DNA from: Candidatus Marinacidobacterium sp.
Lineage (GTDB): Bacteria; Acidobacteriota; Vicinamibacteria; Marinacidobacterales; Marinacidobacteraceae
Assembly: GCA_965223075.1 (NCBI GenBank)
Contig: OZ244986.1
Span: 1,795,591 to 1,859,590 of the forward strand
Direction: 5' to 3'
Length of the DNA: 64,000 bases
This document shows, piece by piece, positions 21,051 to 38,598 of this stretch. A model generated the notes under the pieces. That model saw only the letters and a program-made list of their open reading frames with translations, ran no database searches and was not told the DNA's origin. Both the position numbers and the translations under genes were made by a program. How positions within the stretch are numbered: position 1 is the stretch's first letter; the number at the start of each line of letters is the position of its first letter.

Positions 21051-21054
21051 TCGG

Positions 21055-22110: not shown

Positions 22111-22395
22111 GCCGCGCTTCTCGAACGCTCACCCTGTCGCGATCCGCAACGGAAGCTGCCGGGGGGCGCTGGGCGGCGTTTCCGCGTGAACCCGGAGCGC
22201 TGCAAGCCTGACGGCGCGCTCATGAGGGGCCCCACCGGGAGAACTAGCCCGGACCTGCAGCCAGTCCTGCCGAAGGGAGCCGGCATCGTCCGCCGCCGGC
22301 GTCGAGCCGTGACATGCGGGAATCTCCAAAGCGACTTTTCCACATCTTCGCCCCAACGCGGGAAGAACCGGGCCGGGATTCCGTCGGAGTAGTTA

Positions 22396-22576
22396 ACAGC
22401 CTGTGGTGAAACTCACGCGGCGTTCAAGCGGCGATGCATCCCGGCTGAACCGCGCCGCTTTGCGGCGCTCTGCGTTGCGTTTCGGTCGAAATACACTCGG
22501 TATTCCTCCCTCACGCGCCTTGTCAGCCGGGCGCCTCACCGCTCTCGGCGCTCACGCGAGTTCCACCACAGGCTGT
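22396..22576 (-). mobile_element. MITE copy 1 (~181 bp), TIR AACAGCCTGTGG, flanked by TA
   Basis: Terminal inverted repeats ACAGCCTGTGG...CCACAGGCTGT with TA on both sides. ~85% identical (reverse orientation) to the copy at 58797-58997. Confidence 0.8.
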
Positions 22577-22766
22577 TAAGACGGAAACATCGAGTTTCCG
22601 TCACTGGACTCCAGAGAGGAACTCCCGATGCTGTACACCGACCACAGCCTTCCAGCGCTCACCGCAGACCCGATCCGGAGGGCGGCCTCGCCGATTCTCC
22701 GCGCCGGGACAACACCCGCGCCGGGACCGTCGAACGCTCTCCGGCCAGATGCAGCAGGTTGGTAGC

Positions 22767-22877
22767 ATGACTCCCGCACAGGTTGGAGAAGCAGTGTTCG
22801 ACAGCTACCGGTTCGTGAATCTGTTCTGGAACGTTCGTAAGCCGCGCCCCGCGCGCGCTCAGGCAGAGAGGGAGTAG
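22767..22877 (+). pseudogene. N-terminal remnant of a DUF1640 paralog (36 codons)
   Basis: MTPAQVGEAVFDSYRFVN then diverges. The upstream DNA is paralogous to 21363-21540. Confidence 0.5.
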
Positions 22878-22886
22878 AGCGGACTC

Positions 22887-23141
22887 ATGCCCTTCGCCTT
22901 CGACACCGCCGCCGCAGCGGACACTCTCCAAAAGGCTGGCTTCGATCCACACCACGCTCGCGCCATCGTAGACGTGTTCAAGAGCGTAGATGACTCTCTC
23001 GCAACAAAGGCGGACCTCGCTCCTTTGGCTACGAAAGCGGATGTCGCCAACGCGATCGCTGCAGCCGAGCGGCGACTCATGGTCGCCATAATCGGGGTTG
23101 CCGGAGTTCTGTTCGCCGCGCTTCGCCTTTCCCAGCAATAG
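22887..23141 (+). CDS. DUF1640-like small coiled-coil protein with C-terminal TM anchor
   Basis: FDTAAAADTLQKAGFDPHHARAIVDVF, an ATKADL repeat, and a C-terminal TM VAIIGVAGVLFAAL. Confidence 0.5.
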   Translation: MPFAFDTAAAADTLQKAGFDPHHARAIVDVFKSVDDSLATKADLAPLATKADVANAIAAAERRLMVAIIGVAGVLFAALRLSQQ

Positions 23142-23144
23142 GCA

Positions 23145-23501
23145 GTGTTCGACAGCCACCGGTTCGTGAAGCGGCTCACCGAGGCCGGCATGGAGGAAGG
23201 GCTGGCCGAGGTTCTGGCCGAAGAGCACATGGGTCCATGGATCAGGAACGTCGCCACGAAGACGGACGTGGCGATGATCCGGAAGGATCTGGAGAACACT
23301 CAGACGAACATCCGGGGGGACCCCGCCACGAAGACGGACGTGGCGATGATCGGGAAGGATCTGGACAACACCCAGGCGATGATCCGGTTGGATGTGGAGA
23401 AACGGATCGCCGAACTGCGTGCCGATCTGATCAAGTGGATGTTCGGGGCGCTGATGGCCCAGGGGGCTCTGGTGGTGGCCCTCATCAAGCTGCTCCCGTA
23501 G
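23145..23501 (+). CDS. DUF1640-like coiled-coil membrane-anchored protein (paralog, GTG start, fewer internal repeats)
   Basis: ~85% identical to the 21541 gene at both ends, but with only two ATKTD repeats. Confidence 0.55.
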   Translation: MFDSHRFVKRLTEAGMEEGLAEVLAEEHMGPWIRNVATKTDVAMIRKDLENTQTNIRGDPATKTDVAMIGKDLDNTQAMIRLDVEKRIAELRADLIKWMFGALMAQGALVVALIKLLP

Positions 23502-23823
23502 GCCGCGCTTCTCGAACGCGCACCCCGTCGCGATCCCGCGCCGGAAGCTGTCGGGGACGCTGAGCAGGGGTTCCGCATGAGGTCCGGAGCGCTGCGAGCC
23601 TGACGGCGCGCTGGCGAGGGAAGCCGACCTCCGGTCGGCATCGTATCCACAACCAGGCCCCGCGAATCACGGGAGTCTTGAGAAACCGGCGGATCCGGCC
23701 GAGGCCGAGCGGCATCTCTTCCGCTTCCGTCACCGGGGAGATGGCTCGTTCCTCCGGAGGTGCGGGCGGCAGAGCTTCCTCCGGGGAACCCCTGCGCTGG
23801 ATGGTACCGGGAGGGTGGCCGGC

Positions 23824-25122
23824 TCATCCCTCCAGGTAGCGGGTGGCGGCCAGCAGGCGCGCCGTGATGGCGTCGAAGATTGCAACCTCCATTGCCTGCG
23901 GGAAATCGTCAGGTAGGCCTTCACGCACGGTCTCGAAGGCCCCGGCGCGAATCTCGATCAGTTCCGAAAAGAGGCTTCGAAGGACTCGCGCGGGGACACC
24001 GGCGGCTCTTGCGGTCTCGACGAAATGCCGCGGTTCGATGCACTCCACCACCCGCAACCCGGCGCCTCCCACCGCGAGCGACATCATCGCTTCGTCGGCC
24101 GGAAGCCCCCCGCCGGTGAGCGCCGGCTGCACCGAGACGATGTCGTAGAGCGGCGCGAGGCGGAACCTGCTCCCGGGGAGCAGCCGCAGGCTGTAGTTCT
24201 TGGCATGGCCGTCAATCGCGGCGAGGAGCCAGAAGACGATCTGCGCCCGGAGGAAACTGCGCCGGTCTGCCTCGGACACGACCGAGCCTTCGAACAACTC
24301 GAGGAGCCGGATCATCCCCGGTCCCCCGTCCATCTCGTACTTGCGACCCGACGGGATCCCGAGCGCCTGCGCGAGATCCTCGTGGGGCACCCGCAAGAGC
24401 CGGCCGCCGCCGGCCCACCGCCGGTCGAAACGTTCGACCACCAGGACCCGAACCTCGCCGAAGTCTGCGATCCGAGCAGGCGCCACATCCAGCCCGAACG
24501 CCGACGCCAGGCTCAGGCAGAGGAACTCGTTCTCGACGCTCCGGCTGAAGTCCACCCCCATCAGCGAGCCGATCTGAGGCTTCAGGATGTGGGTCGTCGG
24601 CGTGAATCCGCGCGGGAGTTGCCAAACCCCACCCGAGAGCAGCAGGGCCGTCTTGCGCTGGGCGCCCGCGAGCGAGATACGAAACCGTGGGCCGACCCCG
24701 AGGGGACGCCGGTCCAGTTCCGAAACGAGCCGCGCCACCTCGTCGTCCGCAATCGGCGTCCCCAGAACGGCACCGGGCGGGCCGGGATCCTCCCCTTCCG
24801 GGACGAAGGTCAGCGCGCCCGCCGAACAGCGGCCGAGGTACGCGAGCAGGTTGTAGGGGTGAGTGTCCGGAGCATCCACGCGCGCAGCCAGCCGGGCGCG
24901 CACTCCCTCGGAGTCGGGCAGCAGATTGTCGAGAAACCGGAATACCGGCACCCCGCGGTGACCGGCCGGATCAAGCGGCAACGAGAGCGAGACCGGCGTG
25001 GCGCCCTTCCAGGCGAGCCACTCCGCGTCATATGCAAGCGTGAGCCCGGACGGCGTCCGGGTCAGGGTTCCGAGACGCCTCCCGTTCTCGAAGAGGCGGA
25101 GGGTCCGGCCGACAGACCTCAT
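23824..25122 (-). CDS. hipA: HipA serine/threonine kinase toxin
   Basis: HipA N- and C-terminal domains are present, including HAKNYS, PQIGS and GAQRK motifs. The preferred start is ATG 25122 (MRSVGRTLRLFENGRRLG). Confidence 0.8.
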   Translation of the reverse strand: MRSVGRTLRLFENGRRLGTLTRTPSGLTLAYDAEWLAWKGATPVSLSLPLDPAGHRGVPVFRFLDNLLPDSEGVRARLAARVDAPDTHPYNLLAYLGRCSAGALTFVPEGEDPGPPGAVLGTPIADDEVARLVSELDRRPLGVGPRFRISLAGAQRKTALLLSGGVWQLPRGFTPTTHILKPQIGSLMGVDFSRSVENEFLCLSLASAFGLDVAPARIADFGEVRVLVVERFDRRWAGGGRLLRVPHEDLAQALGIPSGRKYEMDGGPGMIRLLELFEGSVVSEADRRSFLRAQIVFWLLAAIDGHAKNYSLRLLPGSRFRLAPLYDIVSVQPALTGGGLPADEAMMSLAVGGAGLRVVECIEPRHFVETARAAGVPARVLRSLFSELIEIRAGAFETVREGLPDDFPQAMEVAIFDAITARLLAATRYLEG

Positions 25123-25138: not shown

Positions 25139-25387
25139 TCATTCGAGATCGTCCCGTTCAGCGAGCACCCACTGGCGGTCCCGGAGCACGACCTCCCGGC
25201 CGAGGACCGCAAGCAACCGGAAGACGGTATCCATCCGGGTTCCGGGCGCGCCGTTTTCGGCGGCGGAGACCGTGGCCTGCCGCAGCACGCACGCCTCCGC
25301 CAACTCCGCCTGGGTCATGCCCCGCCGCCGTCGGAGAGACCGAATCGCCTGACCGAGGGCGCGCGGGCTCGTTGCGATGGGATCCAT
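25139..25387 (-). CDS. hipB: HipB XRE-family HTH antitoxin
   Basis: 82 aa with HTH_3 motif LGQAIRSLRRRRGMTQAELAEACVLRQATVSAAENG, immediately upstream of hipA. Confidence 0.75.
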   Translation of the reverse strand: MDPIATSPRALGQAIRSLRRRRGMTQAELAEACVLRQATVSAAENGAPGTRMDTVFRLLAVLGREVVLRDRQWVLAERDDLE

Positions 25388-25439: not shown

Positions 25440-25750
25440 CGCAAATCACCCATCCGACCGACGGTCCGGGCCGACAGGGACCGCCGACCTCCGGTCGGCA
25501 TCGCCCGCCGCGGGCGGGCGAAACCGGCAGTAACCCTCCAATAGATGGCGGCGAGCGAAACGGCGCTCACGTAGGCAACCAGGTCGCCATCCCGCAGAAT
25601 CCCCGTGCTTCGCTTCCGCGGACCGCCGGCTGTGACACTTCCGGTCAGTTGCCCGGGCCGGCGGCGCGCCGCCAGCACGGGTTTCGCCCTACCGGGCGAT
25701 GCCGGTCTGGAGACCGGCGGTCCCTGGCCCTTCCGCCGCCCGTCGCTAGC
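25440..25750. repeat. REP-like mosaic palindromic region
   Basis: Contains GACCGCCGACCTCCGGTCGGCATCGCCCGCCGCGGGCGGGCGAAACCGGCAG and GATGCCGGTCTGGAGACCGGCGG modules. Confidence 0.6.
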
Positions 25751-25751
25751 C

Positions 25752-27701
25752 CTACCCGCGTGCGTGGCGGAGCGGGATCCGGATCAGGAACCAGCCGAGC
25801 ACTATGAACACCAGGAAGCCGGGCACGCCGGACGGCATGGCCACGAGCGTCGGGAACTGGTAGTCCCAGACCGCAAACCCAGATAGCGCCACGCCCATCA
25901 ACGCCTCGCCCGCGATGAGTCCGGACGCGATCAGCGTCCCGGCACTCTCCCCGAGGGACCGCCGCTCCGCCGGCAGCGAAGCCATCTGGCGGTCGCTCAG
26001 CCAGCGGAAGAAGCCGCCGACGAAGATGGCGAAGGTGGTCTGAAGCGGCAGGTACATCCCCACCGCGATGAGCATCGGGGAGGGCGCCTGGATCAGGATG
26101 AGGAAGAAGCAGAGCGCGATCCCGAAGATCACGAGCGGCCAGCGCATGTCGCCGCCCACGATGCCCTGGGAGAGAAGCGCCATCAGGCCCGCCTGGGGCG
26201 CGGGTAGCTCTTCGCCTCCAACGCCGATTCCGCCCGAGGCGATGTCTCCCTGGTGGAGGAGCATCATCGGGAGGACGAGGAAGAACGAGGCGAAGATCAC
26301 CCCGAGGATCTCGGCCCATTCCATACGGAACGGAGTTCCCCCGAGGATCTGACCCACCTTCAGGTCCTGGAGCATGTCCCCCGCGACCGCGCAGGCACAG
26401 CAGACCACCGCGGCAACACCCAGCACCGCCGTCACCCCCTGCATGCCGGTGACGCCGAGGAAGGTCATCAACAACGCGGCCAGCAGGAGCGTCGAGATGG
26501 TCAGGCCGGAGACCGGGTTCGAGGAACTCCCGATCACCCCGACCAGATAGCCGGCGACCGCCGAAAAGAAGAACCCGGCGATGATCATCACGATCGCCGA
26601 GCCGAGCGCGCCGAGCGGCTGGCCGGTGTAGTAGTTGTAGAGGAAGAAGGTCGGGATGACGAGGGCCACCACGCCCGCCGTGGTCCAACTGAAGGAGATG
26701 TCGCGGTCCTTCTCCTCGCCCGATCCGGCCGGGTGGCCGGTCCGGATTTCGGCTATCGAGCGCCGGAGTCCCTCGCCGAGCGACTTCCGCATCCGGAGCA
26801 GCGTCCAGACCGCACCGGCGATCATCGCCCCCACGGCGATCGGCCGCACGAGCTCCGCCCAGACGACGCTGCTGACCGCGCTCCAATCGGCACCCGCCGC
26901 CGCCAACCGGTTCGCGTCCGCGAACTCGGGGTTGAAGAAGAGGACCGCCGGGATCATGAACCACCACGCGAAGACCCCACCGGAGAAGGTGAGCGCCGCC
27001 AGCCGGAAGCCGATGATGTAACCCACCCCCAGGTAGGCGGGCGAAGCCGACGGGGTGGAAAAGGGGAACACCCCGGGCTGGGCCGCCGCGCCGAACGTCT
27101 GGCCGCCGACGGCGACCGACCCCTGGAAGGAGCCGTACCCGAAGGCGCCGGCGATCCGGTCGGTGAAGAGCTGGATCCCTTTCGAGTTCTTGAGGACCTC
27201 GATCAGCGCGCCGACGCCCATCATCTGGAACAGCAACCGCCCACCGCTCGCTCCCTTCCCGGCGCGGTGGATCTCGGCGGCGGCGACCGACTCGGGGAAC
27301 GGCAACTCGGGATCGTTGACCATGCTCCGCCGCAGGATGACGACGAACAGGATGCCGAGCAGCCCACCAACCAGCATCAGCAGGGTGCTCTCGAGGTAGT
27401 GGAACTCCTCCCACGCCCCCACCATCAGGAAGGCCGGGAGCGTGAAGATCGCCCCGGCGGCGAGCGCCTCGCCCACCGACGCGGTGGTCCGGGCGATGTT
27501 CTCTTCAAGAAGGCTGCCCCCCTTGAAGAGCCCCCGGATGACCACCATGGAGACGACCGCGGCCGGGAAGGTGGCGGCAACCGTCTGGCCGGCGCGGATG
27601 CCGAGGTAGGCGTTGGCCGCCCCCAGCACCACGGCCATGAACAGGCCGAGGAGAAGAGCCCGGAGCGTGAACTCGCGGGAACTGCCGGATGAGTTCGCCA
27701 T
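25752..27701 (-). CDS. OPT-family oligopeptide transporter
   Basis: 649-aa polytopic protein with OPT-superfamily architecture and motifs (NAYLGIRAGQTVAATFPAAV...). Confidence 0.75.
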   Translation of the reverse strand: MANSSGSSREFTLRALLLGLFMAVVLGAANAYLGIRAGQTVAATFPAAVVSMVVIRGLFKGGSLLEENIARTTASVGEALAAGAIFTLPAFLMVGAWEEFHYLESTLLMLVGGLLGILFVVILRRSMVNDPELPFPESVAAAEIHRAGKGASGGRLLFQMMGVGALIEVLKNSKGIQLFTDRIAGAFGYGSFQGSVAVGGQTFGAAAQPGVFPFSTPSASPAYLGVGYIIGFRLAALTFSGGVFAWWFMIPAVLFFNPEFADANRLAAAGADWSAVSSVVWAELVRPIAVGAMIAGAVWTLLRMRKSLGEGLRRSIAEIRTGHPAGSGEEKDRDISFSWTTAGVVALVIPTFFLYNYYTGQPLGALGSAIVMIIAGFFFSAVAGYLVGVIGSSSNPVSGLTISTLLLAALLMTFLGVTGMQGVTAVLGVAAVVCCACAVAGDMLQDLKVGQILGGTPFRMEWAEILGVIFASFFLVLPMMLLHQGDIASGGIGVGGEELPAPQAGLMALLSQGIVGGDMRWPLVIFGIALCFFLILIQAPSPMLIAVGMYLPLQTTFAIFVGGFFRWLSDRQMASLPAERRSLGESAGTLIASGLIAGEALMGVALSGFAVWDYQFPTLVAMPSGVPGFLVFIVLGWFLIRIPLRHARG

Positions 27702-27819: not shown

Positions 27820-28812
27820 ATGCTCGATATGAAGGTGATGGAACGAAATCGACGGACACCGGTTTCCGAGTTGGAGTTCGTCGGCTGCGAGCCGATCCGG
27901 GTGAGCGCGGCCGAGATCGAGGGTCCCGAGTGGGAGGGACGCCGCGTCGAGTACTGGCACGCGCTGACGGAGACGGCTTGGCTGGTGCGGGAACCGACGA
28001 GCCCGTACCACGAAGTTCCGTCGCGTCGCCTTCCGGCCCTGGTGGAGCGGATCTGCCAGGCCCGCGGGTCGGCGGCCCGGTGCTTCGGTTCGTCCGATCT
28101 GCGGATTCGGGAAGAGGACGGATCGCTCGGCGATCTGATGCAGGCGGACGAAGCGGTGTACCTGCGCCCCGGCAAGGCGAAGATGCCGCGGGGCGCCGCA
28201 CTGATCGTGGGAGAGGATGACCCGCCGGACGTCGTGCTGGAGGTGGACAACACGACGGACGTTCGGCGCGGCAAGCTGATCGCGTATGCGGAGTGGGGGT
28301 TCCCCGAGATCTGGGTGGAGACGCCGGACGAGGGTTCGCCGAGCCGGCCGCGGGCCCTCCGGCCGCGGCTGGCGCTCCATGTGCTGGAGGACGGACGGTA
28401 CCGGGAGTCCATGGAGAGCCGGGCGTTTCCGGGGTGGCGCGCGGAGGAGATCCACCGCGCCCTGAACGAATCGGAGCTGTCGCTGGCGACGGATGCCGCG
28501 CTCTGGCGGGTGGGGCGGGCGCTCGGGGAGCGGGAGGGAACGGTCCCGGAGGACGATCATCTGCTGCGGCGGATGGAACGGCGGGGACATGCCCGAGGAC
28601 TCGCAGAGGGCCAAACCCGGGCGGCGCTGGAGGAACGGGCAGGGATGGCAGCGGCGATTCTGCGTCACCGCGGCGTCGCGGTTTCCCCCGACTTCCCGGC
28701 CGGTCTCTCCCGAGACGACCGCGCCATCCTTGCGGCGGCCTCCCCTGATGACGTCGTCGAGGCGGCCTCCGGCGCCGCCACCCTGGCCGACTTCCTCGCC
28801 CGTCTCCAGTAG
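27820..28812 (+). CDS. Uma2-family (DUF820) PD-(D/E)XK endonuclease fused to a C-terminal DUF4351-like domain
   Basis: Uma2 core PDVVLEVDNTTDVRRGKLIAYAEWGFPEIWV. The C-terminal RRMERRGHARGLAEGQ...AILRHRG...LADFLARLQ resembles DUF4351 of Rpn/YhgA-like proteins. Confidence 0.65.
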   Translation: MLDMKVMERNRRTPVSELEFVGCEPIRVSAAEIEGPEWEGRRVEYWHALTETAWLVREPTSPYHEVPSRRLPALVERICQARGSAARCFGSSDLRIREEDGSLGDLMQADEAVYLRPGKAKMPRGAALIVGEDDPPDVVLEVDNTTDVRRGKLIAYAEWGFPEIWVETPDEGSPSRPRALRPRLALHVLEDGRYRESMESRAFPGWRAEEIHRALNESELSLATDAALWRVGRALGEREGTVPEDDHLLRRMERRGHARGLAEGQTRAALEERAGMAAAILRHRGVAVSPDFPAGLSRDDRAILAAASPDDVVEAASGAATLADFLARLQ

Positions 28813-28854
28813 CCCAGCGCAAAAAGGGCGGCGGCATCCTCGCCGCCCTCCCGA

Positions 28855-31800
28855 ATGCACGAAAGAAGCGGTCAGCTCTTTTTCGCCCCCACGGACCTCA
28901 GCCGGTTCCTTTCGTGCCGGCACCTGACGAGCCTTTCCCGGAGCGTTGCCCTGGGTGAGCAGTCCCGGCCGCCCGAGTACGAAGATCCCCGGTTGGAGGC
29001 GCTGATCGAGGCCGGAAGAAAGCACGAGGCGGTGATCCTGGAGCGGTATCGGGCCGAAAGCCGCACCGTAGAGATCGTGGATCGCGACACGCCAGAGCGC
29101 CGGGCGCGCACCCTCGATGCGATGCGGCGCGGCGTGGACGTCATCTACCAAGGGTTACTCGCCCACGGGCCATGGAGTGGCTACCCCGACTTTCTGGTTC
29201 GGGTGCCGCGACGGAGCACACTCGGCGGGTGGTCCTACGAGGTGGTGGACGCCAAGCTCGCCACGGTGCCGAAGGCCGATGCAGTGCTCCAGATCGCCGT
29301 TTATTCGCGGCTTCTGGAGAAAGCACAGGGCGGAGTTCCGGTGCATATGCACCTCGAACTCGGCCGCCACCAGGGACGGGAGAGCTTCCGGGTGACGGAC
29401 TTCGCCGCGTTCGAGCGCGCCCTCGTCCGGCAGCTCGACGAGCACTGCGCCGCGCCATCGGACACCTACCCGGAGCCGGTCGAGTTCTGCGAGCGCTGCG
29501 ACTGGAACGCCGCCTGCAAGGACCGGCGGCGGGCGGACGATCACCTGTCGCTGGTCGCGAATACCACCCGTCATCAACGCCGCCGGCTTGAGACACAGGG
29601 GATCACGACCCTCACGGGTCTGGCGCGGATCACGCTTCCACTGGACCCACCGCTGGCGCGGGTGGCGCCGGCCGCGCTCCAGCGCATCCACCGGCAGGCG
29701 AACGTGCAGCGCACGGGGCGCCAGTTGAACCGGACTTTCTACGAGCTGGTGGTGCCTCCCGAGGACGGACGGGGACTACTGCGGCTCCCTCAGCCCTCCG
29801 CAGGAGATCTGTTCTTCGACATCGAGAGTTCTCGACCGGGGGCGGACGAGGCTCTCGAATACCTGTTCGGGTTGGTCGATCGCGACGGCCAGTACGAAGA
29901 CCGTTGGGCCTTCGACCGGGCCCGCGAACGCCGGGTTTTCGAAGATTTCCTGGATCTGGTGGCTGAACGCCGTGAACGCTTCCCCGACCTCCACATCTAT
30001 CACTACGGGAGCTACGAGACCGGGGCCCTGAAGCGCCTGATGTGCCGCTACGCCACCCGCGAGGACGCGATGGACGGGCTGCTCCGCCGCCAGGTCTTCG
30101 TGGACCTCCTGCAGGTCGTGCGGCAGGGGGTGGTGGCGTCGGTGGAGAGTTACTCGATCAAGGAAATGGAGCCGTTCTTCGGTTTCGAGCGGGAACAGGA
30201 ACTCCTCGAAGCAAACCGGGCGCGCGCCCGGATGGACGCCTTGCTCGATTCCGGGGACGCCGCTGCGGGCACGCTTCCAGGGGATCGGGAGCTGATCCGC
30301 CGCTACAACCGCGAGGACTGCCTATCCGCGCTGGAACTCCACGGATGGCTCGAAGGGCGGCGGCTCGAACTGACGAACCGCGTCGGCTTACGGGAGCGGC
30401 CGGTCGTGGAAATCTCCCCGGAGGACGAACAGGCGCAAACGGAGGCCGCGGCGCGGGTATCGGAACTCGTCGCCCGGCTCGCGCAAGGTCCCGAGGAGGA
30501 GGCGGACGCGCGGCGGCTCCTGGGCCATCTGCTCGACTACTACCGGCGGGAGGACAAGTCGACATGGTGGGAGTACTTCCGCGTGAAGGATCTCGACGCG
30601 CAGGAACTGGTCGAAGACCCGGCACCGCTAGGCGGACTGGAGTTTGACCAGGACATGGGGCCGGAGAAGCGGTCCGTGCTGCATCGTTACCGGTTTCCTC
30701 TCCAGGAACACCGGATCAAGGCCGGCAAGAAGGTCGAGGATTTCGACACCGGCAGGTCGCCCGGTGATGTGTTCGAAATCGCGGACACCACGGTGACCCT
30801 CAAGCGCAGCAGCACGGCCCGGCGGCAACCTCATCCGCGGGCGTTGGTGCCGGACGAGCACGTGCGCCCGGCCCCCAAACCGGGTTCCCTGTTCCACCTC
30901 GGCGAACTGGTCGCGGACCATGGATTCGCCGATGACAGTCCCCGCCGGGCGGCCTTCGATCTCCTTCGCCGGATCCCGCCGCGCGACGGCATAGCCGGAG
31001 AACCGCTGGTCCATCCGGGCGAAAACATCCTCGCCGCCGCCCGCCGTCTTGCGCTCGGCCTCGACCGCGGCGTGCTGGCGGTCCAGGGACCGCCAGGCAG
31101 CGGCAAGACCTACGTTGGCGCCCGCATCGTCACCGCGCTGCTGGCGGCCGGACGGCGGGTGGGAGTCACGGCGCAGAGCCACCGCGTCATCACGAACCTG
31201 CTGGACAGCGTGTGCTCGGCGGCGACGGAGGAGGGAGTCGTCTTCCGGGGCATCCAGGGGGTGCGGGAGACGGGTTGCGACGATCCGCGGATCGCGGTCC
31301 TGCCCGGTCCCTCGAGGCTGACCGCCGAGGCCGCAGCGGCCCCCGACGTCCGGCTCATCGGCGGCACCGCCTGGGTCTGGTCCCGGGAGGACATGGCGGA
31401 CTCCGTGGACGTGCTGGTCGTGGACGAAGCCGGGCAGTTCGCCCTCGCGGACGCGCTCGCCTCCGCGCCGGCCGCGAACAGCCTCGTCCTGCTCGGCGAC
31501 CCCGCCCAGCTCGACCAGGTAACCCAGGGCGTCCACCCGGAGGGATCCGTTGCCTCCGCGCTCGGCCACCTCCTCGGCGAGCACCAGACGATGCCGGCCG
31601 ACCGCGGCCTCTTCCTGGCAGCGACCTGGCGGATGCACCCGGACATCTGCCGGTTCACCTCGGAGCAGTTCTACGAGGGCCGGCTGGAAGCGCGGCCGGG
31701 CCTGGAGCGGCAGGGAATCCGCGGAGGGCCAATCCCTGGTGCGGGACTCCGCTTTGTCCCCGTCACGCACGCAGGCAACCAGACGGAATCGCGAGAGGAG

Positions 31801-32229
31801 GCCGGACGGGTCGCCGTCCTCGTTGATGGCCTACTGGAAGGCGCGTCGTGGACCGATTCCTCAGGAGCCACGCGACGGGTTACACCTGACGACATCCTCG
31901 TAGTAGTCCCATACAACGATCATCTCGCCCTGCTGGACCGCCAACTCGGGGACCGCGTGCACGGGGTGGGAACCGTGGACAAGTTCCAGGGCCAGGAGGC
32001 CCCTATCGTGTTCTTCTCGATGGCGACCTCGACCCCGGAGGCGGCCCCGCGGGGGATGGACTTCCTCTATTCGGCGCACCGCCTCAACGTGGCGACGTCG
32101 CGAGCCCGCTGCCTCGCGGTCGTGGTGGCAAGTCCGGAATTGTTCTTTCCGGAGTGCAAGACCCCGCACCAGATGCGGCTCGCCAACGCCTTCTGCCGGT
32201 TTCGTGAGTTGGCGGAAACGGTCCCATAG
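28855..32229 (+). CDS. Large nuclease-helicase: Cas4-like PD-(D/E)XK Fe-S nuclease + RNaseH-like (TM0106-type) exonuclease-like domain + Upf1/Dna2-like SF1 helicase
   Basis: N-terminus: YPDFLV...YEVVDAKL nuclease motifs plus a CxxCx5C cluster (CERCDWNAAC). Middle: DLFFDIES and YHYGSYE (DnaQ/RNaseH-like). C-terminus: Walker A GPPGSGKTY, Walker B VVDEAGQ, DKFQGQE and NVATSRAR. Confidence 0.75.
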   Translation: MHERSGQLFFAPTDLSRFLSCRHLTSLSRSVALGEQSRPPEYEDPRLEALIEAGRKHEAVILERYRAESRTVEIVDRDTPERRARTLDAMRRGVDVIYQGLLAHGPWSGYPDFLVRVPRRSTLGGWSYEVVDAKLATVPKADAVLQIAVYSRLLEKAQGGVPVHMHLELGRHQGRESFRVTDFAAFERALVRQLDEHCAAPSDTYPEPVEFCERCDWNAACKDRRRADDHLSLVANTTRHQRRRLETQGITTLTGLARITLPLDPPLARVAPAALQRIHRQANVQRTGRQLNRTFYELVVPPEDGRGLLRLPQPSAGDLFFDIESSRPGADEALEYLFGLVDRDGQYEDRWAFDRARERRVFEDFLDLVAERRERFPDLHIYHYGSYETGALKRLMCRYATREDAMDGLLRRQVFVDLLQVVRQGVVASVESYSIKEMEPFFGFEREQELLEANRARARMDALLDSGDAAAGTLPGDRELIRRYNREDCLSALELHGWLEGRRLELTNRVGLRERPVVEISPEDEQAQTEAAARVSELVARLAQGPEEEADARRLLGHLLDYYRREDKSTWWEYFRVKDLDAQELVEDPAPLGGLEFDQDMGPEKRSVLHRYRFPLQEHRIKAGKKVEDFDTGRSPGDVFEIADTTVTLKRSSTARRQPHPRALVPDEHVRPAPKPGSLFHLGELVADHGFADDSPRRAAFDLLRRIPPRDGIAGEPLVHPGENILAAARRLALGLDRGVLAVQGPPGSGKTYVGARIVTALLAAGRRVGVTAQSHRVITNLLDSVCSAATEEGVVFRGIQGVRETGCDDPRIAVLPGPSRLTAEAAAAPDVRLIGGTAWVWSREDMADSVDVLVVDEAGQFALADALASAPAANSLVLLGDPAQLDQVTQGVHPEGSVASALGHLLGEHQTMPADRGLFLAATWRMHPDICRFTSEQFYEGRLEARPGLERQGIRGGPIPGAGLRFVPVTHAGNQTESREEAGRVAVLVDGLLEGASWTDSSGATRRVTPDDILVVVPYNDHLALLDRQLGDRVHGVGTVDKFQGQEAPIVFFSMATSTPEAAPRGMDFLYSAHRLNVATSRARCLAVVVASPELFFPECKTPHQMRLANAFCRFRELAETVP

Positions 32230-32412
32230 CGACGCGCATCCTGCTTCCTCGGGCGGGCGATGCGGGCTGGGAGGCAACGGTCCCCGGTTGGCGTGCGTTC
32301 TCGGAGGCGGGTCTCCCGGACTCCCGCTCTCCTTTTGTCTGGCGAACCGTAACTTTTCAATCTGCCGATGGGTATATTTTCATTTAGCCGAACTGATGTT
32401 TACAATCTGCCG

Positions 32413-33675
32413 ATGGTCCGGAACACCATCTACCCCCGCTTCGTCGAGCCGCGCCTCGCCGAAGCGCTCGCAGATTCTCCTGCCGTTCTGATCCACGGTC
32501 CCCGCCAATCCGGGAAGACCACCCTCGCCCGCCGGTTCGGACAAGGTCGCGGTTACGCGTACATCAACCTGGATGACGACACCCTGCGGGACGCCGCCGA
32601 GGCGGATCCGGTTGGCTTCGCCGCCGATTTGCCCGAGCGCGTCATTCTGGACGAAGTGCAGCGGACTCCATCGCTGTTCCGGGCCCTGAAGACCGAGATT
32701 GACCGGAGGCGGACGCCGGGCCGCTTCCTGATGGCGGGCTCGACCCAGGTGCTGCTCCTACCGCGGTTGTCCGACTCGCTGGCGGGCCGCCTGCAGATCG
32801 TGCGGCTCCATCCGCTGTCGCAGGCGGAACTCACGGGTCGGATTCCCGACTTCCTCGACACGGTCTTCGGCGACGGCTTTCCGATGGCCCACAGCGAGCG
32901 ACTTGGACCGCAACTGGCCGGGCGGATCGTCGCCGGGGGATATCCGGCCGCGCTCGCCCTGCCGACGGAGCGACGCCGAGCCCGCTGGCTCCGCGACTAC
33001 ACAGCGGCGCTCGTGGAGCGTGACGTACGGGACGTAGCCCGGATCGGAGCGCTGGAAGCCCTGCCCCGACTGCTCGGCGTCGCAGCCGCCCAAACCGCCG
33101 GGCTCTTCAACGTGAACGATTTGGCCTCGCCCTTCCAACTCACACGCCCCACGATCCGCAGCTACCTGACGCTCCTTGAACGGATATTCCTGCTGGCGCG
33201 CCTGCCCGCCTGGCAGAGCAATCGCGTGAGCCGCCTGGTCAAGACACCGAAGCTCCACTTCGGCGACACCGGCCTGGCGTGCGCCCTGCTGGGCGCGAAC
33301 GCCGAGGAACTGGCCCGGAACCGAACGCTGCTGGGCCAACTACTGGAGACGTTCGTGTTCCAGGAACTGAGCCGGCAGGCGGACTGGAATGACGACCCGA
33401 TGACTTTTTTCCATTTCCGCGACCGCGACGGAGTCGAGGTGGATCTGGTGATCGAGCGGGCCGGTGGGGCCGTCGCCGGAGTGGAGGTCAAGGCATCCTC
33501 CACGGTAAGGGGTCGCGACTTCCGGGGACTCCGCAAACTGGCGAATGCCACCGGGGACCGATTCGCGTCCGGGGTAGTGCTCTTCGACGGGGAAACCAGT
33601 GCGCGGTTCGGCGAACGTCTGTTTGCAGTGCCGATTCGAAGGTTGTGGGAGGCACCTGGAGGCGGAGGCGGGTAG
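32413..33675 (+). CDS. AAA_14 ATPase with DUF4143 domain (paralog 1)
   Basis: Walker A HGPRQSGKTT and DUF4143 C-terminal domain. The lister's start at 32368 is also possible. Confidence 0.7.
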   Translation: MVRNTIYPRFVEPRLAEALADSPAVLIHGPRQSGKTTLARRFGQGRGYAYINLDDDTLRDAAEADPVGFAADLPERVILDEVQRTPSLFRALKTEIDRRRTPGRFLMAGSTQVLLLPRLSDSLAGRLQIVRLHPLSQAELTGRIPDFLDTVFGDGFPMAHSERLGPQLAGRIVAGGYPAALALPTERRRARWLRDYTAALVERDVRDVARIGALEALPRLLGVAAAQTAGLFNVNDLASPFQLTRPTIRSYLTLLERIFLLARLPAWQSNRVSRLVKTPKLHFGDTGLACALLGANAEELARNRTLLGQLLETFVFQELSRQADWNDDPMTFFHFRDRDGVEVDLVIERAGGAVAGVEVKASSTVRGRDFRGLRKLANATGDRFASGVVLFDGETSARFGERLFAVPIRRLWEAPGGGGG

Positions 33676-33844
33676 GGAACGTTCCGCGGCGGGTACGGAA
33701 GCGGTGAGCGGTCGTGCCATCCGGGGTTACGCGAAGGTGCGGCACTCATGTTGGCGGAGCGCGGCGTCAGCGGCGCTGGTTTCGCGCTCCCGCGCGATGC
33801 CGGCCGGGAGGTCGGCGCCAGTTTTTCCGGTGGCGGCCCCTGCG
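33676..33844. repeat. REP-like palindromic element
   Basis: GGTTTCGCGCTCCCGCGCGATGCCGGCCGGGAGGTCGGCGCC module. Confidence 0.5.
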
Positions 33845-35425
33845 CTACTCGGCCGCCATGGGGCGGTCGCGGTCGTGGTCCACGACGCAGAAGAAGCCGA
33901 ACGGCTCGGCGGTCTCGTTCCGCAACTGGTGGGCCTCCAGCGGGCCGACGCAGGCGACGTCGAGATGCCGCAGCGGCAGCCGGCGATCTCCGAGGAGGAG
34001 GACGCCTTCCCCGCGCGCTCCGATGACCACGTGGGTGTGGACATGCCGCTCGAAGCTGGTGTGGCCGCCCGGCTCGACCTCGAAGTAGCGAAGATCCGAG
34101 CGCGTGCGCTCCCCGAATTTCCCGACGAGTTCCACCCGCCGCACGCCCCGGAACGCGAGATCTCGAGCGTCCTTGTAGGGCGAGCTGTCGCGCCCCTCCC
34201 AGTTCCAGTCGCGGCTGAAGGTCAACCGGCGAGGCTCCGGAAGCGCGGGGCGCGGCAGATCCGCCGGTTCCATGGCGACCTCGGGGTGGGATTCGCGGAT
34301 CCTCGCGAGGATCTCCCGGGTTCCCGCCTCCACGCCGCCGGCGTGGCCGAGCAGCGCCCCGCCAATCAGCAGCACCGTGTCCGGGCCGTAGGTCTCGCAG
34401 ATGCGTTCTACATCGGCCGGTCCCATTCCGCCGGCGGGGGCCGGCCACGCCGGACGCAGCGTGCCGAGCGGCTCCCGGAGCCGGCCGGTGATCTCCGAGC
34501 ACTCGGCCGCCGAATACGCAAAGCGGCCGCCCGCGTTCGGAAACACCGAAATGTCCGCTCCGGCCAAGCGGAACAGTGTCCCGAGCAGGACTCCGTGGGC
34601 CACTCCCTGCGCCTCCGCGTGGGTGTAGGCCCCGGTCAGCGAGGGGTGCGCCATGAAGATCAGCGGGTAGCGCTCCGCCAGCGCCCGCACCGTGTCGAGG
34701 CCGGTGATCATCGGGCAGATGAGCACTCCGGGAAGGCCGGCCTCGGCCACGAACTCGACGAAACGTTCGAGATCCTCCGCCCGGGCACCGGCGTGGGGAA
34801 GGTAGAGGCACCTTCGTCCGGTCGCCTGGTTGGCCCGCTCCACCGCCTCGCCGCAGACGGCGACGCGGCGGCGAAACCCTTCGAAGTCGTCGGTCAGGTT
34901 CTGGTCGTCCTTGACCAGATCTCCACCAGCCCGCGCAAACGCGCCCGCTATCGCGGCCAACTCGGGGACGCTCGAGCCCCGGGGCTTTACCGCCGTGGCC
35001 AGCAGCGGACGCCCGAGCACACCGCAAAGCCGCCGCACCCCTTCGACGCCGTGGTTCGGTCCCGGGAGGCTCTCGAGCAACGCCTGGGGTGGCTGCAGAT
35101 CGACGAGTCGCACGCCGCCGTACATCGAGGCGTTGCCGATCGCCACGCTCAGCAGGCCGAAGAGATCCGTCGCGAGGTCCGCCGCGTAGCTGATGGTGAT
35201 TCGGGAGGCGCCCGGAGCGTCCGGGTCGGGCGCTACCGACTCGACCTTCCCGACGATTTCGTCCTGAATCCGTCCGGGTGGAATCAGCGACTGCGGAATC
35301 TCTACCGTCTGCTCGATGGCGATGGCGCGGGCGAACTCCTCCGGGTCCCCGGAGTTCGCCTGCAGCCGGTAGACGGCGGTTACCCGATCGGGATCGGGCG
35401 GCGCCTCCCGCACGTTCGGTTTCAC
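33845..35425 (-). CDS. RuBisCO-like protein (form IV RLP) fused to a C-terminal cupin domain
   Basis: RLP large-subunit fold with GGDLVKDDQNL (the RuBisCO KDDE motif region). The C-terminal ~110 aa form a cupin (RYFEVEPGGHTSFERHVHTHVVIGARGEG). The start overlaps the tsaD stop by 4 nt. Confidence 0.7.
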   Translation of the reverse strand: MKPNVREAPPDPDRVTAVYRLQANSGDPEEFARAIAIEQTVEIPQSLIPPGRIQDEIVGKVESVAPDPDAPGASRITISYAADLATDLFGLLSVAIGNASMYGGVRLVDLQPPQALLESLPGPNHGVEGVRRLCGVLGRPLLATAVKPRGSSVPELAAIAGAFARAGGDLVKDDQNLTDDFEGFRRRVAVCGEAVERANQATGRRCLYLPHAGARAEDLERFVEFVAEAGLPGVLICPMITGLDTVRALAERYPLIFMAHPSLTGAYTHAEAQGVAHGVLLGTLFRLAGADISVFPNAGGRFAYSAAECSEITGRLREPLGTLRPAWPAPAGGMGPADVERICETYGPDTVLLIGGALLGHAGGVEAGTREILARIRESHPEVAMEPADLPRPALPEPRRLTFSRDWNWEGRDSSPYKDARDLAFRGVRRVELVGKFGERTRSDLRYFEVEPGGHTSFERHVHTHVVIGARGEGVLLLGDRRLPLRHLDVACVGPLEAHQLRNETAEPFGFFCVVDHDRDRPMAAE

Positions 35426-36486
35426 CGGTGGCGCCGGGACCTTCGCGGGCCCTGCTCCCCAAGCCGCAACTCGGTGTCTGCCGTGAGGTCCGCGCCTGCC
35501 GTCTCGCCCCGCAGGAGCGCCAGATGACCGGCGGCGGCGATCATGGCCGCGTTGTCGGTGGAAAGGGCGATGCTCGGGTAGAAAACGGGCAGGCCGCGCT
35601 CCTCACCGAGAGCGTGGAAGCGGGCACGGAGCGCCGAGTTGGCGGCTACCCCGCCGGACAGCAGGACCGCCCTCACTTCGAACATGTCAAGCGCGCGGTC
35701 CACCGAGCGGCGGAGCGCCCGCACCACCGCGGACTGGAAGCTGGCCGCAAGATCGCAGAGATCTTTTCGGCCGGCAGGATCCTCCCCGTCGGCCAAAGGC
35801 GCGATTCCTTCCTGCTCGATGAGCCGAAGGACCTGGGTCTTGAGGCCCGAAAAGCTGAAATCGAGTTTGGCGCCGTCCGAAAAGTGAGGGAGCGACAGCA
35901 GGTGGCGGTTCGCCTTGCCGCGCTGCGCCAACCGGTCGAGCACCGGACCGCCCGGATAGCCGAGCCCGAGCCGTTTCGCGAGCTTGTCGTACGCCTCGCC
36001 GGCCGCATCGTCGCGGGTCTTGCCGAGCAGCCGGTAGGAACTCTCGCCTTCGAGCAGGAAGAGACTCGTGTGTCCCCCGGAAACCACCAGCGCCAGCGCC
36101 GGGTGGGGAACCTCGCCGCCTTCCAGATAGCAGGCCCGGATGTGCCCCTCGATGTGGTCCACGCCCACCAGCGGAATGCCGCGGGCGAACGCGAAGGCCT
36201 TGGCGAAAGAGACCCCGGCAAGCAGCGCTCCAATGAGTCCCGGGCCACTCGTTACCGCAACCGCCTCGATGTCCGCGAGCCCCACGCGGGCCTCGCTCAG
36301 CGCTTGCCGCACCACCGGTGAAAGGTGCAGGAGATGCTGCCGGGACGCGATCTCGGGCACCACCCCACCGAAGGCCGCGTGCTCGGCGACCTGCGACGAA
36401 ACGACATTCGAGAGGATGCGCCGGCCGTCCTCGACAACCGCCGCCGAGGTTTCGTCGCAGGAGGTCTCGATCCCCAGGATGAGCAT
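35422..36486 (-). CDS. tsaD: tRNA N6-adenosine threonylcarbamoyltransferase
   Basis: MLILGIETSCDETSAAVV, VDHIEGH and GGVAAN motifs. The ORF lister fused it to an upstream junk extension; ATG 36486 is the real start. Confidence 0.85.
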   Translation of the reverse strand: MLILGIETSCDETSAAVVEDGRRILSNVVSSQVAEHAAFGGVVPEIASRQHLLHLSPVVRQALSEARVGLADIEAVAVTSGPGLIGALLAGVSFAKAFAFARGIPLVGVDHIEGHIRACYLEGGEVPHPALALVVSGGHTSLFLLEGESSYRLLGKTRDDAAGEAYDKLAKRLGLGYPGGPVLDRLAQRGKANRHLLSLPHFSDGAKLDFSFSGLKTQVLRLIEQEGIAPLADGEDPAGRKDLCDLAASFQSAVVRALRRSVDRALDMFEVRAVLLSGGVAANSALRARFHALGEERGLPVFYPSIALSTDNAAMIAAAGHLALLRGETAGADLTADTELRLGEQGPRRSRRHR

Positions 36487-36491
36487 GGGGT

Positions 36492-37244
36492 TCAGGGAGC
36501 GGCGCCAAACAGACGCTCCATGCCGCGCCTCCAGAAGGGTCCGTTGCGGACCAGGTCGGTCACGTCGGCGGTGAGCATCTCGGAGCAGGCCCGTTCGTGA
36601 CAGGTCTTCCAGTCCGGTCCATCGGGCCGCCCTAGTCGCCCCACGGCGAGAAGGTCGATACGCTCCTCCGCCGAGAGAGCGCCGAGCCGGGCAGTGAGGC
36701 GGCTGCGCGCCAGCGATTCGACCGTCTCCCCGGTGGCGGAGAGGAGATCGTAGGCCTGCGCGAGCGCCACCACGGTCGACCGGGCGATCACCGGCGCCAC
36801 GGCCGCCGCGCCGATCTCGTCCGCGAAGTCGTCGGCGCCGAGATAGCGCACCGGGATTCCGAGCGCACTCGCCTCGACCTTGTTTGCGAGCCTCCGGTCG
36901 GCGGTAACGAGCGGCGATCCGGTCTTCTCCGCACAAGTGAGATAGAGAGCGTCGTACACCGGGTGGTCGAGCGCCAGGGCTATCCCGGCGGCGCGATGAA
37001 CGAAGCGACCGGGCGGATGCAGAGTTATCTCGTACGGGAGGCGTCCGAGGAGGTTCAAGTGCTCCATTACGTCGGGAAGCTGTCCGCGGCGGAATTTCTT
37101 CCAGCAGACATTCGCGAACTCCGCGAGCAGCAGGTCGGGAGCATGCAGTTCCAGCCGGTGGGCGCGCAACAGCTTGGCCGTCCCGGCCAGTTCCTCGGTT
37201 ACGGACCACTTGACGACGACGCTGGCGTCGACCGTCAGCCTCAC
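36492..37244 (-). CDS. PIN-domain (VapC-like) protein with ~110-aa C-terminal extension
   Basis: The four PIN acidic residues sit in VDASVV, LLAEF, YDALYL and VTADRRL. It overlaps the upstream RHH antitoxin (ATGA) and ends 5 nt before tsaD. Confidence 0.6.
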   Translation of the reverse strand: MRLTVDASVVVKWSVTEELAGTAKLLRAHRLELHAPDLLLAEFANVCWKKFRRGQLPDVMEHLNLLGRLPYEITLHPPGRFVHRAAGIALALDHPVYDALYLTCAEKTGSPLVTADRRLANKVEASALGIPVRYLGADDFADEIGAAAVAPVIARSTVVALAQAYDLLSATGETVESLARSRLTARLGALSAEERIDLLAVGRLGRPDGPDWKTCHERACSEMLTADVTDLVRNGPFWRRGMERLFGAAP

Positions 37245-37477
37245 CGGTCCCGATCTTCGCGCAACAGCAGGACGCTGTCCGTCTGGGGAATGTCGGCGGT
37301 CATCCGGGAGAGCGCGTCGGTGCGCTCGCGAAACTGCACCATGCGCTGTATCCGGTCGAACCGCTCCGTCAGTGCGCGCCGGGCCTCGGCCTCCATCGAA
37401 CGGTCGTTCGCCTTGGCCTCCGCCTTCAGCGCCTGGATCACCCGATCATCAAGGTTGCGAATTGTGAGACTACCCAT
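37241..37477 (-). CDS. FitA/VapB-like ribbon-helix-helix antitoxin
   Basis: MGSLTIRNLDDRVIQALKAEAKANDRSMEAEARRAL is a typical FitA-like RHH. Confidence 0.65.
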   Translation of the reverse strand: MGSLTIRNLDDRVIQALKAEAKANDRSMEAEARRALTERFDRIQRMVQFRERTDALSRMTADIPQTDSVLLLREDRDR

Positions 37478-37554
37478 GGCGGCTCCTTCTGAGTGAAGGC
37501 ATCATGCTAGCACATCGCATTCACGATGAGGCAAATCGCTGCAGCAGATCGGAT

Positions 37555-38598
37555 TCAGCGGGCAAGCTGCCCGAGAGAGGGGCCCAAGGGAGGCCGGGCG
37601 ATGCCGCGCTCGGTGACGATTGCGGTGATGTAGCGGGCGGGAGTGACATCGAAGGCCGGGTTCCAGACCGGGACGCCCTCGGGCGCCACCCGCTCCCCGG
37701 CAATCTCGACGAGTTCCTCCGGACCACGCTCTTCAATGGGGATGTCCGCCCCGGTGGGCGTTTTCAGATCCACGCTCGAAAAGGGCGCCGCCACCAGGAA
37801 CGGGACGTCGTGTTCCTTCGCGAGCACGGCAGCCTGATAGGTGCCGATCTTGTTGGCGATGTCGCCATTCGCGGCGATCCGGTCGGCGCCCACGACGACC
37901 GCGTCGACCCCTCCCCTGGCGAGCAGGGCGCCGACCATCCCGTCGGTGATCAGAGTCACCGGAATCTTCTCGGCCATCAGTTCCCAGGCGGTGAGGCGAG
38001 CGCCCTGAAGGTACGGCCGGGTCTCGGGTGCGAAGACCTCGACCCGGCGGCCCGATTCCACCGCCGCGCGGACGATCCCGAGCGCGGTGCCGTAACCCGA
38101 AGTGGCAAGGCTGCCTGCGTTGCAATGGGTCAGGACGCGGGCCGGCCCGCCGCCGGGGGGCAACAGGCCGGCGCCGAGCGCGCCGAGACGGCGGTTCGCG
38201 TCCAGATCCTCCGCGGCGATCCGGTTCGCCTCGTCCTCGAGGCCGGCGACGAGTTCAGCGGGCGCCTGTGACAGTGCCGAATCCAGCCGAGCCCGCATCC
38301 GATCGAGCGCGGCCCGGAGATTGACCGCAGTCGGCCGGGTGTTCAGGAGCTCGGCCGCCAGGCCGTCGAACCGGTTCGCCGCAGGGTCGGTGTCAGGACC
38401 GCGGGCGAACCCGAGGACCACCGCGTAGGCGGCAGCAACCCCGATCGCCGGAGCGCCGCGAACGACCATGTCGCGGATGGCCTCTCCAACCTGGCCGGGT
38501 TCGGCGCACTCGATCCAGACCTCTTGCGAGGGGAGCCGGCGCTGGTCCAGCAGAGCGAGGACGCGGCGCTCGGAGTCCCACCGGAACGGACGGACCAT
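37555..38598 (-). CDS. mtnA: S-methyl-5-thioribose-1-phosphate isomerase
   Basis: eIF2B-like fold with mtnA motifs (THCNAGSLAT, GADRIAANGDIANKIGTY). Confidence 0.8.
   Translation of the reverse strand: MVRPFRWDSERRVLALLDQRRLPSQEVWIECAEPGQVGEAIRDMVVRGAPAIGVAAAYAVVLGFARGPDTDPAANRFDGLAAELLNTRPTAVNLRAALDRMRARLDSALSQAPAELVAGLEDEANRIAAEDLDANRRLGALGAGLLPPGGGPARVLTHCNAGSLATSGYGTALGIVRAAVESGRRVEVFAPETRPYLQGARLTAWELMAEKIPVTLITDGMVGALLARGGVDAVVVGADRIAANGDIANKIGTYQAAVLAKEHDVPFLVAAPFSSVDLKTPTGADIPIEERGPEELVEIAGERVAPEGVPVWNPAFDVTPARYITAIVTERGIARPPLGPSLGQLAR

Follow-up and report, generated by a model that had tools for sequence, protein, structure and literature searches.

We describe three adjoining genes on the plus strand of a 64-kb stretch of Candidatus Marinacidobacterium sp. 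DNA (contig OZ244986.1; hereafter the window, 64,000 nucleotides (nt) in full), which a first-pass annotation had read as one candidate system for defence or DNA processing, and we concentrate on the second of them, g2. All three open reading frames (ORFs) are present where that annotation had placed them. Gene g1 (27820–28812, from its ORF and Pfam match) encodes a 330-amino-acid (aa) Uma2 (DUF820) protein, a predicted endonuclease of the PD-(D/E)XK type; g2 (28855–32229, from its ORF and domain matches) encodes an 1124-aa nuclease–exonuclease–helicase; and g3 (32368–33675, from its ORF and its Pfam and PADLOC matches) encodes, in a 435-aa ORF, an AAA_14 ATPase with a DUF4143 domain. The three ORFs share a strand and are separated by intergenic spacers of 42 nt (g1–g2) and 138 nt (g2–g3). 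ORFs of 380–470 aa also run over g1 and g2 on the opposite strand; we take these as artefacts of high GC content, because every domain match falls on the plus-strand ORFs.

The product of g2 is a member of the TM0106 family (COG2251; TIGR03491), a Cas4-like Fe-S nuclease joined to a DEDDy exonuclease and an Upf1/Dna2-type helicase. It matches the NCBIfam model TIGR03491, 'TM0106 family RecB-like putative nuclease', over aa 13–499 (E = 3.3e-75; 253.8 bits against a cut-off of 97.45; model positions 4–462 of 462). The N-terminal Cas4/AddB/Dna2-type PD-(D/E)XK nuclease with its four-cysteine Fe-S signature (aa 1–228, 28855–29538) is assigned through this model, and has a weak PDDEXK_1 match besides. 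It is followed by an RNase H-fold, PolB-like DEDDy 3′–5′ exonuclease (aa 319–499, 29809–30351; Pfam RNase_H_2, PF13482, E = 4.9e-20), by long stalk helices and a 1B-like beta-barrel seen in the AlphaFold2 model (aa 500–730, 30352–31044; no Pfam match), and by a superfamily 1B (SF1B) Upf1/Dna2-type helicase core (aa 731–1124, 31045–32229), with PDB matches and with Pfam matches to AAA_11, AAA_12 and AAA_30 at aa 733–1093. The first-pass annotation had named these three modules correctly and had thought their combination undescribed, which it is not. The COG2251 architecture, a DUF83-like nuclease with a PF13482 exonuclease and a tandem AAA unit, was described in 2014, its exonuclease as family F.13 of a 3′–5′ exonuclease clade (PMC3985635), and the NCBI annotation pipeline names such proteins 'TM0106 family', many plasmid homologues included. 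The full domain order is shared by g2 over its full length, with no structural difference. What is new here is the turnover of its alleles at the population level, together with a census of its neighbourhoods.

We aligned 64 full-length homologues, in which each of the following residues is invariant or more than 90% conserved. The Fe-S cluster cysteines C21, C212, C215 and C221 are invariant, as are D112, D132, K134, Q146 and Y150 of the nuclease, where E129 is invariant or above 90%. The exonuclease residues D322, E324, D417, Y484 and D488 are conserved, and so are the helicase's Walker A motif (GPPGSGKT, G745–T752) and Walker B motif (DEAGQ, with D857 and E858). Judged from this conservation, all three catalytic modules look active. 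The AlphaFold2 model (mean predicted local distance difference test, pLDDT, of 80.9) places stalk helices at aa 475–578 and the strands of the beta-barrel at aa 596–666, ahead of two RecA-like domains; a stalk and an oligonucleotide-binding (OB) domain are characteristic of the UPF1/DNA2-like helicase family (PMC11090510). The best whole-chain match of the model in the PDB, using Foldseek, is Dna2 (5ean, E = 1.4e-22), and the top matches 5ean, 5eaw and 5eax span more than 1000 columns, after which IGHMBP2, Upf1 and Sen1 follow for the helicase half. A phmmer search of PDB sequences agreed, returning Upf1, IGHMBP2, Sen1 and Dna2 for the helicase, with the Dna2 match confined to aa 1009–1093 (E = 6.4e-7).

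The first gene is an ordinary Uma2 protein, with a C-terminal half of about 150–160 aa that matches no Pfam family. Its match to Pfam Uma2 (PF05685) has an E-value of 8.8e-9 and 35.5 bits against a gathering cut-off of 27, and the precomputed domain record for the gene lists Uma2 alone. The first-pass label, Uma2-DUF4351, therefore stands in its first part and not in its second, as no Pfam family, DUF4351 included, matches aa 171–330 even at E ≤ 10. Uma2 and DUF4143 are both PD-(D/E)XK families; for some lineages, an association between Uma2 and mobile elements has been noted (PMC3424549).

The third gene is an ordinary member of PDC-S01. Its Pfam matches are AAA_14 (E = 3.7e-26) and DUF4143 (a PD-(D/E)XK family; E = 1.5e-46), as the first-pass annotation had it, and aa 15–428 match the PADLOC model PDC-S01 (E = 4.6e-166; model positions 7–419 of 422), end to end and with no difference. 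Proteins of this type, in which a PD-(D/E)XK domain is joined to an ATPase (PMC12988326; PMC3424549), are reported as the fourth most common prokaryotic defence candidate, unvalidated and single-gene (PMC12988326). A second, diverged AAA_14–DUF4143 paralogue lies on the minus strand at 56675–57925, 23 kb from g3 (phmmer E = 6.4e-58), so the PDC-S01-like family is multi-copy in the window's genome; a further copy is found beyond OPT, the oligopeptide transporter gene to the left of g1, in two related loci (L091 and L094). The true start of g3 is probably at 32413, giving 420 aa, rather than at 32368. The g2–g3 spacer up to that start (32230–32412) holds a degenerate hairpin of the repetitive extragenic palindromic (REP) kind, a promoter-like TTTTCA-18-TACAAT on the plus strand 5′ of g3 (32377–32406), and two copies of the 14-nt CAATCTGCCGATGG (32358 and 32404, 46 nt apart, within 32358–32417). 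An in-frame ATG of g3 closes each CAATCTGCCGATGG copy, and the promoter-like site lies between the two; the pair may represent a start region that was duplicated, or else an operator.

Uma2, the helicase and the ATPase are not a conserved three-part system. One genome per species yielded 80 loci with full-length g2 homologues (37–81% identity) in Acidobacteriota, Chloroflexota, Alpha- and Gammaproteobacteria, Bacteroidota, Actinomycetota, Planctomycetota and others; within 10 kb of the homologue, phmmer found a relative of g1 in one of the 80 loci, from the same genus, and a relative of g3 in four. We also scanned the immediate neighbours at 78 diverse loci (71 upstream and 76 downstream) against Pfam: Uma2 is the upstream neighbour in 2 of 71, and DUF4143 is a neighbour once on each side (1/71 upstream, 1/76 downstream). 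All-against-all clustering of the four genes on either side recovered no conserved partner of g2, with no family in more than five of the 78 loci. The triad is not co-conserved and the neighbours vary freely; the first-pass proposal of a single system, which had made this very comparison its test, is therefore not supported.

Closer relatives of the window repeat this result at a single chromosomal site. We compared nine loci that share its flanks, which are OPT on the left (25752–27701, minus strand; Pfam OPT; protein 93–99.7% identical in relatives) and a RuBisCO-like protein/cupin gene followed by tsaD and mtnA on the right (33845–35425, minus strand; Pfam RuBisCO_large and Cupin_2; 94–98% identical). 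These two genes are the conserved borders of a variable spot. The helicase-nuclease lies between them in all nine loci, each of which was found through the helicase, and the rest of the content changes: Uma2, helicase and ATPase, in that order, in the window and L008; Uma2, a helicase remnant, the ATPase, a helicase, MNT and HepT in L002–L004; Uma2, helicase, MNT and HepT in L005; ATPase then helicase in L022, L091 and L094; and the helicase alone in L092 and L093. Uma2 is thus found in the window, L008, L003 and L005 and is missing from L022, L091, L092, L093 and L094 (five of the nine), and the ATPase is upstream of the helicase, downstream of it or absent. A scan of Joint Genome Institute (JGI) metagenomes anchored on OPT gave two close contigs, L095 and L096, both of which break off inside Uma2 or shortly past it; the 500 nt that come next in L096 are repeat-like sequence and not helicase. 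The best reading is of three mutually independent genes of nuclease type, placed at a chromosomal spot that changes fast. The first-pass description of a defence-island-type setting holds to this extent, as the genes lie in a variable spot rich in toxin–antitoxin and defence genes, and g3 matches the defence-candidate model PDC-S01.

At this fixed chromosomal site, alleles of g2 are replaced between near-identical strains. Between the window and L008, synonymous divergence (dS) is 0.26 for OPT, 0.06 for Uma2, 0.50 for the helicase, 0.04 for the ATPase and 0.22 for the RuBisCO-like gene; between the window and L003 it is 0.10 for OPT, 0.04 for Uma2, 0.58 for the helicase and 0.00 for mtnA. L008 and L093 have flanks with a dS of 0.029 and a nonsynonymous divergence (dN) of 0.004, and helicases with a dS of 0.72 and a dN of 0.17. 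The order is reversed between the window and L091 or L094, where the helicase (dS 0.43) is less divergent than the flanks (dS 0.67), and the window's helicase allele is closer to these more distant relatives than to the alleles of its nearest ones. Over all pairs of clade loci, the helicase tree conflicts with the flanks. When the window is scanned against L008 at the nucleotide level, identity drops to 66–89% at about 28900–32100 alone and is 95–99% elsewhere; the divergent block coincides with the main part of the helicase ORF, and both gene ends, Uma2 and the ATPase are conserved. In two contigs, an identical OPT protein sequence borders two different versions of the island.

A trace of such replacement is preserved in L003, as also in L002, L004 and L175, where a remnant of a window-type helicase (7927–8396 of L003) sits between Uma2 and the ATPase and is followed by an intact second helicase allele (79% identical) and MNT/HepT. 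The remnant consists of the equivalent of window 28855–29153 joined to 32092–32229, with about 2.9 kb deleted. Identity to the window's gene is 97% over the first 80 nt and the last 159 nt of the remnant and about 72% over nt 80–305, so the remnant is itself a mosaic. The overall dN/dS of g2 is about 0.2, which indicates that its alleles are old and functional and are not decaying. Divergence peaks at aa 601–660 (30655–30834), in the beta-barrel, and at aa 781–840 (31195–31374), in an insertion of the first RecA-like domain; there, identity between alleles is 48–65% and local dN/dS rises to about 0.6–0.9. These stretches are possible interaction surfaces.

We now compare g2 with known nuclease-helicases. 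Like Dna2, it carries an Fe-S PD-(D/E)XK nuclease N-terminal to an Upf1-like SF1B helicase with a stalk and a beta-barrel. However, a linker of the helix-hairpin-helix (HhH) kind and the DEDDy exonuclease are placed between nuclease and helicase, the global template-modelling (TM) score of Dna2 against g2 is 0.33–0.35, sequence similarity is confined to the helicase motifs, and the enzyme is bacterial and plasmid-borne with no evident partner of the replication protein A (RPA) type. Gene g2 is Dna2-like at the level of the fold and is not a Dna2 orthologue, as orthology was not found at the sequence level. With AddAB, RecBCD and AdnAB it shares the pairing of a helicase with RecB-type nuclease activity and a predicted action on DNA ends, and its four-cysteine Fe-S nuclease signature is common to AddB and Cas4; RecBCD also destroys phage DNA. 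In contrast to those heteromers, g2 is a single chain, its motor is SF1B and Upf1-like rather than SF1A and UvrD-like, and a DEDDy exonuclease takes the place of the second RecB nuclease.

Among defence systems, the matches of g2 in PADLOC (MkoA, MkoC and DpdJ) cover the generic helicase half alone, and the likeness to Nhi and Hachiman-type effectors noted in the first-pass annotation is not supported as membership of either. Nhi of staphylococci (Bari et al. 2022) reportedly combines a nuclease and an Upf1-like SF1 helicase in one polypeptide and acts as a single-gene defence. The resemblance of g2 is to this logic, a nuclease and an Upf1-like helicase in a single chain, whereas its nuclease is of another type and it has an extra exonuclease module; no model named Nhi is among the PADLOC matches at E ≤ 0.01, in a PADLOC version not confirmed to include Nhi. 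We rejected Mokosh because the Upf1-like helicase core alone matches (MkoA, E = 7.1e-38; MkoC, E = 4.7e-22; both confined to aa 831–1112), and g2 lacks the Mokosh N-terminal regions and, by Pfam, a phospholipase D (PLD) nuclease. Hachiman, which comprises the DUF1837 nuclease HamA and the superfamily 2 DExH helicase HamB, was rejected for g1–g3 because neither HamA nor HamB gave a PADLOC match and the helicase of g2 is SF1.

The g2 family is large and accessory in character. Its N-terminal 730 aa match 1655 clusters at 50% identity (E ≤ 1e-30), and the best of these matches are mostly proteins of 1110–1220 aa, the full fusion. The phyletic spread is sporadic, with 41–47% identity across phyla, and full-length homologues are carried by 59 plasmids, 26 of them conjugative, in hosts that include Rhizobium, Sphingobium and Piscirickettsia. 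About one fifth of the immediate neighbours at diverse loci match a PADLOC model at E ≤ 1e-10, in a rough count of known and candidate defence genes; they include Shango SngC, BrxH, a type III restriction enzyme, AbiEii, HEC-05 and SAVED-TIR, and further ZorA, DrmD, DpdF, a type I methylase (MTase_I) and PsyrT. Many other neighbours are ordinary metabolic genes. A set of three genes (about 808, 439 and 765 aa) adjoins the helicase in three to four unrelated loci, and was seen in the flanks of L024, L028, L034, L048 and L063; it could represent a defence system of its own beside the helicase. On an Ensifer plasmid (L089, 113–10369), the g2 homologue is part of a four-gene same-strand array that also holds a 'helicase-related protein' and a 1034-aa hypothetical protein, and on the Sphingobium plasmid pNIN3 (L090) the operon of SbcD-like and SbcC-like genes with the g2 homologue lies between two WYL-domain regulators.

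From these results, we read the region from OPT to the RuBisCO-like gene as a variable spot that has collected three independent single-gene nuclease elements, of which g2 is a stand-alone enzyme, probably one that acts against mobile elements by degrading both strands of DNA; we place the probability of this reading at roughly 0.6. In it, g2 would be a long-term resident of the spot, and g1 and g3 would be separate genes of mobile, multi-copy type that landed there as well. The helicase of g2 would load at a flap or at an end of DNA that is free, and would move 5′ to 3′, feeding the tracked strand through the Fe-S nuclease, as in Dna2; trimming of the displaced 3′ strand would fall to the DEDDy module. 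With one module on each strand, a single polypeptide would degrade foreign DNA, linear or nicked, on both strands, and its targets may be phage genomes, replication intermediates and incoming conjugative DNA.

Two alternatives would bind g2 to its neighbours. That Uma2, the helicase-nuclease and the AAA_14–DUF4143 ATPase form one three-gene defence or DNA-processing system is extremely doubtful, even though they share a strand with short spacers, L008 has the same gene order, and an AAA_14–DUF4143 gene adjoins the helicase or stands one gene off in L003, L022, L091, L094 and L006. The triad is confined to the window's genus, and the clade loci dispense with Uma2 or with the ATPase or reposition the latter. 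The discordant dS within one pair of loci (Uma2 0.06 and ATPase 0.04, helicase 0.50) and the intact Uma2 and ATPase beside a deleted helicase remnant also argue against a single system, as do g3's own promoter-like site and the great abundance of PDC-S01 as a single-gene candidate (PMC12988326), with its second copy 23 kb away. A smaller unit, in which Uma2 and the helicase-nuclease are co-transcribed as a two-gene module in this clade alone, would explain the constant g1–g2 spacer of 42–43 nt in the window, L008, L003 and L005 and the lack of a terminator-like site between them on the plus strand. It is nevertheless very unlikely, given that the helicase is intact without Uma2 in five clade loci, that Uma2 is so rare upstream of the family's other members, and that Uma2 is near-identical across strains whose helicase alleles differ by 20–27%.

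A housekeeping function is the more serious competitor, though we consider it unlikely: g2 would serve DNA repair or replication as a bacterial analogue of Dna2 or AddAB in one chain, with a task in the resection of double-strand breaks or in the processing of flaps and stalled forks, and its neighbours would be irrelevant. This alternative is kept alive by the resemblance to Dna2, the top whole-chain Foldseek match, by purifying selection with its invariant catalytic residues and low dN/dS, by constant synteny in the clade (9/9 loci), and by the plasmid example with SbcD-like and SbcC-like genes. We favour a role against mobile elements because alleles are replaced at a fixed site, because the family is carried on plasmids and spread sporadically, and because known defence genes are frequent as immediate neighbours. 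The exchange of alleles between near-identical strains, in discord with the flanks, would be unusual for a core repair gene, and neither the identity of 41–47% across phyla nor the 59 plasmids sit easily with one. Gene g2 is, on this balance, probably a stand-alone enzyme that degrades DNA ends of mobile elements.

Several observations pull the other way. The presence of g2 at the same locus in every sampled clade genome, under purifying selection, would also fit a useful housekeeping repair enzyme, and the count itself is biased, since the nine loci were found through the helicase and so do not establish its universal presence in the clade. On pNIN3 (5892–15102 of L090), the g2 homologue shares its operon with SbcD-like and SbcC-like genes. 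The fraction of about one fifth for defence-type neighbours is a raw value with no measured background behind it. The strand polarity and substrates proposed for g2 are inferred from homology. No PADLOC 2.0 model spans its full length, we found no experiment on any member of the TM0106-helicase family, and a literature search returned unrelated papers on Dna2 and RecBCD and none that names the TM0106 or RecB-like putative nuclease family. We list here, too, that no g2 homologue was found in phage genomes, which is neutral for the reading.

A broader proposal is that the TM0106-helicase family is a widespread and so far unrecognised single-protein immune enzyme, a Dna2-like motor-nuclease with a proofreading-type exonuclease that would destroy invading DNA, linear or nicked, on both strands, under frequency-dependent selection. 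We offer this tentatively, at somewhat less than even odds. Frequency-dependent selection would lead to whole-allele exchange, with alleles swapped between strains and species at the fixed site, perhaps as an escape from inhibitors encoded by phages or plasmids. As a three-gene system the locus does not merit pursuit, and g2 alone is worth following, as one of a populous family of at least 1655 clusters whose three nucleic-acid-processing modules look intact within one chain. If it is an immune enzyme, g2 extends the nuclease-helicase defences by a single-gene member of Dna2-like type, compact in form and perhaps able to degrade DNA on both strands. If it is a repair enzyme, it is a bacterial single-chain alternative to AddAB and RecBCD.

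We turn to the flanks of the spot. On the left, beyond OPT, lie hipA (23824–25122; Pfam Couple_hipA and HipA_C) and hipB (25139–25387; Pfam HTH_31 and HTH_3), both minus-strand ORFs and same-contig gene calls. This toxin–antitoxin pair is the left-hand accessory content of the spot; it does not adjoin OPT in L005, L091, L092 or L094, and is thus variable among relatives. The first-pass annotation had drawn the flanks as hipBA, OPT and REP elements; the two gene assignments stand, and we rejected the REP elements as borders. The palindromic REP-like element GCCGACCTCCGGTCGGC occurs at no fewer than nine intergenic sites over the window (3737, 3944, 13653, 16618, 23623, 25483, 38704, 48705 and 49746), and so is a genome-wide intergenic repeat and no marker of an island border; its sole copy within the g1–g3 cluster is the degenerate one between g2 and g3 (32252–32284). 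A second type of hairpin follows OPT and the RuBisCO-like gene at their 3′ ends (25661–25719 and 33759–33817; 75% alike). The window contains no tRNA or tmRNA integration site, and no Rfam RNA reaches the gathering score within it.

On the right, the same-contig gene calls place tsaD, a PIN/FitA-like ribbon-helix-helix (RHH) pair and mtnA beyond the RuBisCO-like gene. The RuBisCO-like/cupin fusion overlaps tsaD by 4 nt and is upstream of the PIN/FitA-like RHH toxin–antitoxin pair and mtnA, which encodes methylthioribose-1-phosphate isomerase (33845–38598, minus strand); the arrangement suggests a methionine-salvage cluster. The gene calls of the European Nucleotide Archive (ENA) contig merge the RuBisCO-like gene with tsaD into a single 880-aa product.

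An element resembling a miniature inverted-repeat transposable element (MITE), about 190 nt long with 25-nt terminal inverted repeats TTAACAGCCTGTGGTGAAACTCACG, lies at 22389–22579 of the window. The TTAACAGCCTGTGGTGAAACTCACG element is found twice in L008 (16865–17038 and 20965–21129), where the insertion of one copy separates the RuBisCO-like gene from tsaD, two genes that overlap in the window, and similar sequence follows Uma2 in the metagenome contig L096 (about 430–470). The surrounding stretch of the window, 21043–23640, is rich in repeats, with a 72-nt tandem unit (23245–23388) and 146-nt copies at 22000 and 23391, and holds several small ORFs without any match in Pfam. Its matches to L008 recur with a periodicity of 64 nt.

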